The notes beneath the pieces were generated by a model. The model made no database searches. It was not told the origin of the DNA and worked only from the letters and a program-made list of their open reading frames with translations. The position numbers were made by a program, and so were the translations under genes. From Escherichia phage JM10, in sequence record PP400777: a stretch of 64,000 nucleotides of DNA. The stretch is one strand, 5' to 3'. Within the stretch, counting starts at the first letter, position 1. Every line of letters starts with the position of its first letter. Positions 18,812 to 21,823 of this stretch are shown piece after piece.

Positions 18812-19183
18812 TCAATTAGAAAATAAATTTATCCAAGTTTTTTCTTTAATCAAAAATGGGTCGGAATTAAACGCCATTAAACTTTGAGTGATTAATCCCT
18901 TAAATGGCCCATCAATAAATTCCATTTTGAAATGCGGAATACTAGTCATCAACCGTGCATTAGGAGCAGTACAAAGAACCTGCTGCCCTGCGAACGGACC
19001 TTTAGTCAAACGATATCGTTTAGGTTTAAAATGGTAAATCTCGTAATTTTCTACAAGAGCCCTTTTATTGCATACTGGGCTGTTATAACAATATTCAAAA
19101 ACTTCAATAGTGGTCATCATTGCATTCCAATCACAAAAAATTGAGGACGAGCAATACCGCCGATGCAATATTTGCTTTTGCAA
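18812..19183 (-). CDS. hypothetical protein
   Basis: 123-aa ORF. Confidence 0.4.
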   Translation of the reverse strand: MQKQILHRRYCSSSIFCDWNAMMTTIEVFEYCYNSPVCNKRALVENYEIYHFKPKRYRLTKGPFAGQQVLCTAPNARLMTSIPHFKMEFIDGPFKGLITQSLMAFNSDPFLIKEKTWINLFSN

Positions 19184-19656
19184 CAGTGTTGGACTGTTTT
19201 AATATGGACATTGTAAATCTTATCCATATCAGGAGCTTTAATAGGCTCGTCAATTATGTACAGAATACGAGAAAGCGTTAATCCACGGAATTTAGAACCT
19301 TCATTGCCAATAAAACTACGAACAGAATCAGTAAATAAACGGAATCGAATATCATCGCTAGAATAACGAGAAAATTCTTTTTTAATGTTGCCAGCAGAAA
19401 TTTTAGCATAAGCTGAAGTATTAGAAAGAACAATAACAGTTCCGCCATCATACAACCAATTAGCAGCGAAGTTAGTCACAGCAATTGATTTACCTGATTG
19501 TCTGCCGCCGTCTAAACGAAGTGTACAGTACTGCTTGAGTACATCTTCAAATGGTGGGACATAACCGTTCTTACAAATTTCTTCTACTCTAGCATCAGAA
19601 TGGTGTGTAAAAGCATTCATCAGGGATAGATAAGGTCCAGTTAAAAATGTTCTCAT
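19117..19656 (-). CDS. hypothetical protein
   Basis: 179-aa ORF; start uncertain because of overlap with 18812..19183. Confidence 0.4.
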   Translation of the reverse strand: MRTFLTGPYLSLMNAFTHHSDARVEEICKNGYVPPFEDVLKQYCTLRLDGGRQSGKSIAVTNFAANWLYDGGTVIVLSNTSAYAKISAGNIKKEFSRYSSDDIRFRLFTDSVRSFIGNEGSKFRGLTLSRILYIIDEPIKAPDMDKIYNVHIKTVQHCCKSKYCIGGIARPQFFVIGMQ

Positions 19657-19769: not shown

Positions 19770-20072
19770 TTATTTACCTTTAATTACTTTAGCTGCTTCG
19801 ATAGCCGCTTGCTGAAGGTCATCCATAGACATACCGAATTTAGAAGCAAAGTTATCAATTTTCTTTTCGACAGCATTCAAAGGCTTTGCCTGTTTACCTT
19901 CATTAGCGCCAGGAAGAGCGAGAATACGCTCTTTGTCAATATAAAGGCTTACAAGTTTCTTACGGTCTTTATCGGACAAATCATGAAATGAATGGGCCTT
20001 TTTATTTATAGCGGCTTCTAATTTACCTGCACTCACTCGCGCTTCAGTAATAAATTCTTGATAGGTTTTCAT
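19770..20072 (-). CDS. ipII: internal protein (IpII-like) with capsid-targeting sequence
   Basis: N-terminal MKTYQEFITEA is the T4 capsid-targeting sequence (CTS); 100 aa. Confidence 0.6.
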   Translation of the reverse strand: MKTYQEFITEARVSAGKLEAAINKKAHSFHDLSDKDRKKLVSLYIDKERILALPGANEGKQAKPLNAVEKKIDNFASKFGMSMDDLQQAAIEAAKVIKGK

Positions 20073-20100
20073 GTGTTTCCTTGTTTGTTTTGATAGAGTA

Positions 20101-20130
20101 ATTATACCATATTAATACTTAAGCGTAAAC
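20101..20130 (-). promoter_or_regulatory. T4-type early promoter
   Basis: GTTTAC + 18 nt + TGgTATAAT. Confidence 0.5.
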
Positions 20131-20210
20131 CGTTTAAGCTTTACCGCCAGAAATAATTCCGAAGTTGTTAAAATCATATCCAATATCGTCAACATCTACT
20201 TTAGGACTTG

Positions 20211-20396
20211 CTACAACATAAGCAATTTCACTACGTTTTGCATAGGTGTTTTGATTTCTTTACCATCGCCACCTAAGAAAGAATACCCATTACGTTTTAA
20301 TGAGCCAAAGTCTTCCGCATCACCAATGAAAGCTTTAACTTTAAATTTAGGACCTTTGGCATCTGCTTCAACGATAAATTCTTGATACATTTTCAT
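20211..20396 (-). pseudogene. CTS-containing small internal-protein gene, apparently frameshifted
   Basis: MKMYQEFIVEA start; frame ends after 61 aa and continues in the +1 frame for about 28 more codons. Confidence 0.35.
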
Positions 20397-20563
20397 TTTT
20401 CCTTAGTAAATTGATTTACCAAAGTATTTGTACCAAGTCGGGCGTTGAGCAATTTTTTATCTAAGCGTGCTTGACTTATCGCAATGGACGCTTCGGACGG
20501 GTCATAATTTCCTCCAAGTAGTTGATGAATGTATAGTATCAAAACCCTTGGAGGAAGTAAACA

Positions 20564-20845
20564 CTATTTTTCTGAAGCGCCTGAAATATATTTTTCAAGA
20601 CGTTGTTTCATCAGCGAGCCGTTCTTAGCAATTTCTTCCGGTTTATCGCACATACGCAACAAGGCTTCAAGCTTAACGATATCACTGGTGCGCTCAAATT
20701 TGCGAGTATCTATCTTACTAGCAAGTTCAGAAATACGTGCTAATAGACTTTCAGCTTCAACCAAAGCTGCACCTAGCTTAGTTGCAAATGTGTCAGTAGC
20801 TTCGTTAAGAATAGATTCTGATAAAAATTCACTATATGTTTTCAT
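20564..20845 (-). CDS. internal protein (IpIII-position) with capsid-targeting sequence
   Basis: [13 protein letters not shown]; directly upstream of e as ipIII is in T4. Confidence 0.55.
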
Positions 20846-21330
20846 ATATACGCTTTCCAAGTTCCTGTTTTAAATGTTGAGATTACGCGTTTCGCGCGAT
20901 TAGGTGTCTGACGATACCATTTAGATTGGGCTAGATTTACTGCCGCCTCGTCCCAACGTTTCTGTTGAAGCATACGAAGAGAATTAGTAAAACCGGCGAC
21001 GCCTGCTACACCCATTTGGAAGACCATATTGACCAATGCACATCGACGAACCGCATCTAAAGAATCATATACCGGTTTAAGTTTAGCATTACCCAAGATT
21101 CCGCGAACGGCTTTATCAACGTCTTCATTAAATAGCTTTTCAGCCTCATCAAGGGTAATTGTACCGTTGCATTTACGACCGATAATTCTGTCAAGTTCAG
21201 CTTTAGCTACGGCTAAAGACGGGTTCTTTGTTACTAAATGGCCTATGCCAATCGTCCAAAAGCCTTCAGTGTCTTTATATAAAGTCAGTCTAAGACCTTC
21301 GTCATTACGAAGCATTTCAAATATATTCAT
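20842..21330 (-). CDS. e: lysozyme (endolysin)
   Basis: [17 protein letters not shown]; strong match to my recall of T4 lysozyme. Confidence 0.9.
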
Positions 21331-21364: not shown

Positions 21365-21823
21365 TTATAGGAGGGTAGTGAGCACCTTATATAATGATTT
21401 GCCCATTACATATTCCCATTGAGAAGGTTTAATTAAAGCGAATGCATCAAATTCAGGAATCTGTCGTCCGTCTGGGAATGTATGATAGGAATTACAAACA
21501 CTGTTTCTGAATTGCTCGTGCTCTACAGGGATGGTATATTGGAACAGATGAATATTCTTATTGTCTGAGTAATGATGTTCACCTAGGTCTTTCAGGAAGG
21601 CAGGGTCATATTGTGTAAACCCAGTTTCTTCTTCGCATTCACGAATAGCGGCTTCAATAGGAGATTCGCCAGGTTCGACACGGCCTTTAGGAATATCCCA
21701 CCGATGGGCTAATGCACCTTTAGGACGAGAACCAGTTACACGCCCCATGAATAATTCTTTATCTTTGGTAAGGAAAATAATACCGGCTGATAGTTCTTTC
21801 ACTTTATTTTTCTTACTCATCAT
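21365..21823 (-). CDS. nudE: Nudix hydrolase
   Basis: Nudix box GRVEPGESPIEAAIRECEEETG. Confidence 0.8.
   Translation of the reverse strand: MMSKKNKVKELSAGIIFLTKDKELFMGRVTGSRPKGALAHRWDIPKGRVEPGESPIEAAIRECEEETGFTQYDPAFLKDLGEHHYSDNKNIHLFQYTIPVEHEQFRNSVCNSYHTFPDGRQIPEFDAFALIKPSQWEYVMGKSLYKVLTTLL

Follow-up and report, generated by a model that had tools for sequence, protein, structure and literature searches.

Escherichia phage JM10 (sequence record PP400777) contains, downstream of its lysozyme gene e, three minus-strand ORFs whose N-termini resemble the capsid targeting sequence (CTS) of the T4 internal proteins, a sequence reportedly studied by Mullaney and Black and reviewed in PMC9026906 and PMC3012670. 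The middle ORF is interrupted. This raises the question of what the interruption represents: the decay of an internal-protein gene, a loss that benefits the phage, a sequencing error, or a programmed frameshift. We addressed this question in a 64,000-nt stretch of the phage genome, referred to here as the window, by comparing the locus with those of related phages and metagenome contigs.

Where PMC3012670 (citing Repoila et al. 1994) and PMC9026906 treat internal proteins, T-even phages are described as having polymorphic loci that encode a diversity of non-essential internal proteins tagged with a CTS. The locus in the window is similar to these in that it consists of cassette-like, unrelated small genes that have only the CTS in common and are gained and lost between close relatives. 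The work of Repoila et al. 1994, as it is cited in PMC3012670, concerns the ipI locus and cassette exchange, whereas the change described here is a point frameshift in the e-denV-ipII region.

Gene layout and identity of the internal proteins

Every gene between positions 19100 and 21900 was found on the minus strand. In transcription order, the region begins with nudE (21365-21823), followed by the lysozyme gene e (20842-21330), which encodes 162 aa and is 82.6% identical to T4 e. The stop codon of e overlaps the ATG of the next gene (at 20845) in the sequence ATGA. This next gene encodes an internal head protein of 93 aa of the Ip5/RB69ORF127c type (20564-20845). It is separated by a non-coding-looking stretch, a remnant of denV (20403-20505), from the disrupted gene, which belongs to the RB69ORF125c type of internal head proteins and has a whole footprint of 20134-20396, corresponding to 86 aa in its intact form. 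The ipII ortholog (19770-20072; 100 aa, beginning MKTYQEFITEA) and vs.8 (19117-19656; 91% identical to T4 vs.8) complete the region. This order (e, ip5-type, denV, ORF125c-type, ipII) resembles that of RB69 and differs from that of T4, which is e, ipIII, ipII, denV.

Several further features of the region were observed. A strong promoter-like site of the sigma-70/T4-early type (20101-20129, minus strand; TTTACG-17-TGnTATAAT) lies between the broken gene and ipII; it has 10 of 12 consensus matches and an extended -10 TG, and is putative, being identified by its match to the consensus. Putative T4-early-type promoters of the form GTTTAC-N17/18-TATAAT or TACTAT precede both ipII (20101-20129, minus strand) and the denV remnant (20525-20560, minus strand), and, as a result of the denV deletion, the distance from the putative denV promoter to the broken internal-protein gene downstream is only about 130 nt. 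A perfect T4 late-promoter motif, TATAAATA, is located within the ipII coding sequence (20003-20010, minus strand) and is the sole such motif on the minus strand between 18500 and 22500. Where the e stop overlaps the start of the Ip5-type gene, two ENA metagenome contigs (L015, ~1500-1530; L017, ~125-155) have a longer (TA)n tract at the equivalent of window positions ~20845-20860, the junction reading GTATATATATATATATATATG in the contigs and GCGTATATATG in the window. Such an expansion would change the C-terminus of e or the coupling of the Ip5-type gene to e. At the other end of the region, phage FL44 has one annotated ORF of 858 nt (L001, 2745-3602), where two genes, vs.8 (540 nt) and vs.7 (330 nt), are found in the window (at 18812-19656) and in other relatives. 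The FL44 ORF may be a vs.8/vs.7 fusion or the result of an indel in FL44.

The N-termini of the three ORFs were compared with the CTS consensus MKTYQEFIAE. In T4 IPIII, the first 10 residues suffice for capsid targeting. Within the CTS, positions 4 and 7 play an important part in targeting, and positions 8 and 10 do so in cleavage by the gp21 protease, which has the motif L/I-X-E (PMC9026906). All three ORFs have Y4, F7, I or L at position 8, and E10 in their 10-residue CTS, and residues 8-10 (L-S-E, I-V-E and I-T-E) satisfy the gp21 motif in each. The CTS is thus common to T4 IPI, IPII and IPIII and to all three ORFs in the window, in agreement with an earlier reading of the DNA from its letters alone (the sequence-only reading), which had described three CTS genes with the middle one interrupted; both the ORFs and a second frame ending at a TAA (20134-20136) were seen.

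The three proteins differ in their relation to known internal proteins. The 100-aa protein is 93% identical to T4 IPII over 100 of 100 residues and matches phrog_7857 (E = 4.5e-55), and the copy of this gene in FL44 has a precomputed match to PF26874 (Phage_T4_IpII). It is therefore an IPII ortholog, as its earlier description as IpII-like had suggested. The other two proteins have only the CTS in common with the T4 internal proteins. The 93-aa protein is 92% identical to RB69ORF127c and matches phrog_3499 'internal head protein' (E = 1.2e-46). Compared with genes annotated as ip5, it is 47-51% identical to those of T2 and RB51 and 89% identical to ip5 of VR20. The sequence-only reading had placed this gene at the position of ipIII. 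It does occupy the position of T4 ipIII and does carry a CTS, but it is not homologous to IPIII: blastp gave no match to T4 IPIII or to the IPIII ortholog of phage JoYop, with which it shares the CTS only, and we rejected an IPIII identity in favor of the phrog_3499/ip5 type. An IPIII ortholog (PF26861) is absent from the window, so that the earlier label of an ipII/ipIII locus holds for ipII and not for ipIII.

The middle gene is a homolog of RB69ORF125c (NP_861815, 'internal head protein' in RefSeq), and its protein, when the frame is repaired, matches phrog_2667 'internal head protein' and phrog_35655. RB69ORF125c and its 86-aa homologs in Mosigvirus and Tequatrovirus are located directly after denV and have a CTS-type N-terminus, as in the window; in Salmonella S16-like phages, homologs of 87 aa were found. 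Neither of the two non-IPII proteins had a match in Pfam, and a sequence search of the PDB returned chance-level matches only (E >= 0.2). An AlphaFold2 prediction from a four-sequence alignment of the intact homologs was too poor to interpret (pLDDT 53.9, pTM 0.45).

The 2-nt insertion and the lost half of the protein

We aligned the middle gene of the window with those of FL44, Pu-Krd-SF5, JoYop, FL12, JM17, BF15, RB69 and UFV13. Most homologs of the RB69ORF125c type are intact, at about 86 codons, whereas the copy in the window has a 2-nt insertion and can yield a product of 61 aa only. On the coding strand the insertion changes AA to AAAA after codon 48, which corresponds to TTTT at 20249-20252 on the plus strand, where intact alleles have TT. 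Intact alleles read GGT AAA GAA ATC AAC ACC TAT GCA, and the window reads GAA ATC AAA ACA CCT ATG CA. At the lesion itself FL12, JM17, BF15, RB69 and UFV13 have ATC AAC ACC and JoYop has ATA AAC ACC. The indel is clean, and the surrounding DNA is nearly identical to that of these six phages.

The translatable ORF of the disrupted gene (20211-20396, minus strand; beginning MKMYQEFIVEA) has 61 codons followed by a TAG. Native homology stops at codon 48; the 13 codons after it (49-61, KTPMQNVVKLLML) are read out of frame. Up to codon 48 the sequence is 94% identical to RB69ORF125c, and the remaining 38 codons are found in another frame. The TAG at 20211-20213 is merely a consequence of the insertion upstream. 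The sequence-only reading was thus correct that translation stops after 61 codons, but the true break is at 20249-20252, after codon 48, about 40 nt upstream in gene orientation of the interval in which it had proposed to look for the lesion (20200-20215). It had also described the frame as resuming in +1 for about 28 codons. By coordinate arithmetic, the downstream frame is -1/+2 relative to the first ORF ((20396-20136) mod 3 = 2), and the stranded part comprises 38 native codons plus the TAA (20134-20250, minus strand). Codons 1-48 and the -1/+2 frame together give the 86-aa protein of the JoYop/RB69 type. The stranded frame (20134-20250) contains no in-frame ATG, GTG or TTG, and separate translation of the 3' part was rejected because it lacks an in-frame start codon.

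The lost C-terminal half (AKRxEIAxVV..KVD..D..DFxxFG) was found to be invariant or conserved down to Salmonella-phage homologs of 66-67% identity. This conservation indicates that purifying selection acts on the half in phages whose gene is intact. Compared with the closest intact alleles, the stranded 3' part in the window shows a synonymous difference only. Because the stranded part has no further damage, the insertion event is recent.

The consequences for the protein can be outlined as follows. The insertion shifts translation into a frame that meets a stop 13 codons later, so that only a 61-aa product is possible. This product would consist of the CTS (residues 1-10), 38 native residues and the 13 out-of-frame residues KTPMQNVVKLLML, and would lack the conserved C-terminal half of 38 residues. 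By analogy with CTS fusions in T4 (PMC9026906), the truncated product is probably still directed to the prohead and cut by gp21 after E10. The native function is most likely lost, judging from the conservation of the missing half. The phage would tolerate this loss, since internal proteins are not needed on standard hosts.

Spread of the allele and the explanations weighed

We searched 50,697 phage records by blastn with an allele-specific 63-nt query and found the segment in 181 of them. The exact allele of the window was present in 7 (~4%): FL23, FL44 and Pu-Krd-SF1, 2, 5, 6 and 7. The other 174 (96%) aligned over 61 nt, 2 nt shorter, and all of those that were read encode an uninterrupted 86-aa protein, so that the single-frame homolog that the sequence-only reading had proposed to look for in related phages does exist. 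A tblastn search detected the 86-aa protein in 217 records, and among the 60 matches listed a split into two pieces occurred only in records with the +AA allele. FL23 and FL44 come from pig faeces in Denmark, and the Pu-Krd-SF phages from piglet faeces in Russia. The same insertion was identified in ERZ27280748 and ERZ28616113, two metagenome contigs from ENA that are independent assemblies and encode the 61/59-aa product. Nearby differences of these contigs from the window are a 9-bp deletion upstream, no loss of a G in the denV remnant and the (TA)n expansion. The 59/61-aa product is annotated in FL23 and FL44; in GenBank, the identical allele appears as a protein of 59 aa labelled hypothetical or 'internal head'. 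IMG/VR contained no copies of the exact allele, and a protein-guided scan of that database returned the loci of only five relatives, all of them intact.

The same change is found across laboratories and metagenomes on distinguishable backgrounds, and the insertion is therefore inherited rather than a read error. Very probably, the window carries a heritable decayed allele of an RB69ORF125c-type gene for accessory capsid cargo, in a pig-gut-associated sublineage. Of the explanations in the sequence-only reading, that of a decaying internal-protein gene is thus the one that gained support, given the intact homologs in 174 of the 181 records and the 86-aa protein in 217. On this reading, the frameshifted allele represents the ordinary decay of a gene in a region known to be hypervariable, and the identical allele is already in GenBank. 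For annotation, the locus should be flagged as a disrupted RB69ORF125c-type gene instead of being listed as a new short protein or as a site of recoding; the wider import is small.

Other lesions of the same gene were found in public assemblies, with at least four that are independent of the one in the window. UFV13 (L014; gp125/gp126) has lost 2 nt, a cluster of eight contigs (P0007) has lost 1 nt, and a cluster of three contigs (P0009), one of them at ~5,600x coverage, has gained 1 nt. Clusters P0005 and P0010 and loci L018 and L020 also belong to the set of broken alleles. In UFV13, P0007, P0009, P0005 and P0010, the gene is split centrally by small indels, as in the window. These alleles differ from that of the window in having -2, -1 or +1 nt at other sites, and they are therefore independent events. 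In P0004, P0011 and P0012, the gene has undergone in-frame or fusion deletions, the in-frame ones between short repeats, and in P0012 codon 30 of denV is fused to the C-terminus of the RB69ORF125c-type protein. Some of the single-contig variants among the broken alleles may be assembly artefacts. The locus in the window further illustrates how rapidly the non-essential e-denV-ip region in T-even phages erodes and recombines, with small indels and deletions between short direct repeats both contributing. In a clustering of proteins at 90% identity, DenV (137 aa) and the 84-86-aa internal proteins share one cluster of 475 members. This cluster is presumably bridged by denV-IP fusion products such as that of P0012, and the names attached to it should be read with that in mind.

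The persistence of the allele on several haplotypes would also fit a truncation that is tolerated or even favored, and not simple decay alone. An adaptive explanation would hold that the lesion is real and has been kept since losing or altering the injected protein helps the phage, for example by escape from a defence that senses the full-length protein, or because the 61-aa product, which has gained a hydrophobic tail, acts differently. In keeping with this, the allele is present on at least three haplotypes, all four combinations of the frameshift and the denV deletion exist, public assemblies show at least four further independent frameshifts and several deletions in this 86-codon gene, and T4 IPI is a known player in the arms race between defence and counter-defence (PMC3012670). 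However, the allele is rare (~4% of records), and T-even phages recombine freely, so that the shuffling of haplotypes needs no selection. The broken gene gave split matches in 3 of 60 sampled records and the neighboring Ip5-type gene in 1 of 60, which, as a crude control, is no meaningful difference, and the possible assembly artefacts among the single-contig variants further weaken the case. We consider this explanation unlikely. The broader proposal, in which selection for inactivation recurs in some host populations and the +AA allele, the other lesions and the denV deletions are all adaptive loss and not neutral decay, is decidedly unlikely. Under that proposal, the injected full-length protein might trigger a host defence, and the 61-aa remnant with its CTS might still be packaged as altered cargo. 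The finding would gain interest if it were true that repeated breakage of an injected protein is selected.

A sequencing or assembly error, with AA and an intact 86-codon ORF in the true genome, had been raised by the sequence-only reading, which suspected a short homopolymer. The site is indeed a short run of A, and perfect preservation of the stranded 3' part is what an artefact would leave as well. Yet reading A2 as A4 would mean calling two extra bases in a very short run, an error atypical of any platform. The identical allele is also present in 7 GenBank records from two laboratories and countries, one of which has documented Illumina data (the FL phages are MiSeq 2x250 assemblies; PMC12032242), and in the two independent metagenome assemblies with differing backgrounds. 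This recurrence makes an error highly improbable.

Programmed -1 (or +2) ribosomal frameshifting within 20211-20262, which would yield an 87-aa-like full-length protein beside the short form, has next to no chance of being correct, since the ~17-codon overlap of the frames and the intact downstream frame that speak for it are outweighed by the absence of a 0-frame X XXY YYZ heptamer from the directly inspected overlap (20211-20262), the mispairing of tRNA-Lys expected in a -1 slip from AAA onto CAA, a predicted folding energy no lower than that of shuffled sequences for a 113-nt segment that includes the site and the sequence after it (MFE -14.6 vs -15.2 +/- 3.1 kcal/mol, z = 0.18), the single-frame allele in 174 of 181 records, which leaves the two-frame arrangement unconserved, and an A4 run far too short for transcriptional slippage. 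We therefore reject this third suggestion of the sequence-only reading, as slippery heptamer, stimulatory RNA structure and conservation are all absent. Peptides from NTYAKRSEIAYVV in virions, if present, would indicate recoding.

The denV remnant and the IPIII cassette

The locus around the decayed gene is itself decaying more widely: only a 103-nt remnant of denV is left, and there is no ipIII. We read the remnant (20403-20505, minus strand), which the sequence-only reading had not mentioned, by alignment with the intact denV of Pu-Krd-SF5 and JoYop. Of 414 nt, 103 are left, and the ORF from the denV ATG has 9 codons; a complete DenV ORF of ~137 codons (PF03013, Pyr_excise) is not present at the locus. 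The missing 310 bp were deleted between imperfect 13-bp direct repeats, AATTATG(A/C)CCCGT, located at the start of denV and near its end, with the junction within 20497-20509. In addition, a G has been lost between 20458 and 20459 (GAT(G)AAAAAA). The phage should thus lack pyrimidine-dimer excision repair, and the denV fragment should be flagged as a pseudogene. The same junction was found in the pig-derived phages FL12, FL23, FL44, JM17 and BF15 and in two ENA contigs. FL18 matches in one piece, over the same length as JM17, which suggests the same deletion.

The denV deletion and the +AA frameshift were found in all four combinations among the relatives (loci L002, L009, L010, L011, L015 and L017). 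For instance, Pu-Krd-SF phages have an intact denV with the frameshift, and FL12, JM17 and BF15 have the denV deletion without it. The loss of the G and the 9-bp promoter-proximal deletion are also independently distributed among relatives. The presence of all four combinations implies recombination between sites ~150-250 bp apart, or recurrence.

In JoYop and BF15, the middle gene and ipII are separated by an IPIII ortholog (192 aa, 579 nt) that is absent at this place in the window (20073-20100, compared with L003 2600-3260). In JoYop, the IPIII gene is flanked by direct repeats of a Shine-Dalgarno and CTS-coding sequence (AAGGAAACAnATGAAAAC.TAT.AAGAATTTAT). These repeats would allow a clean loss or gain of the IPIII cassette.
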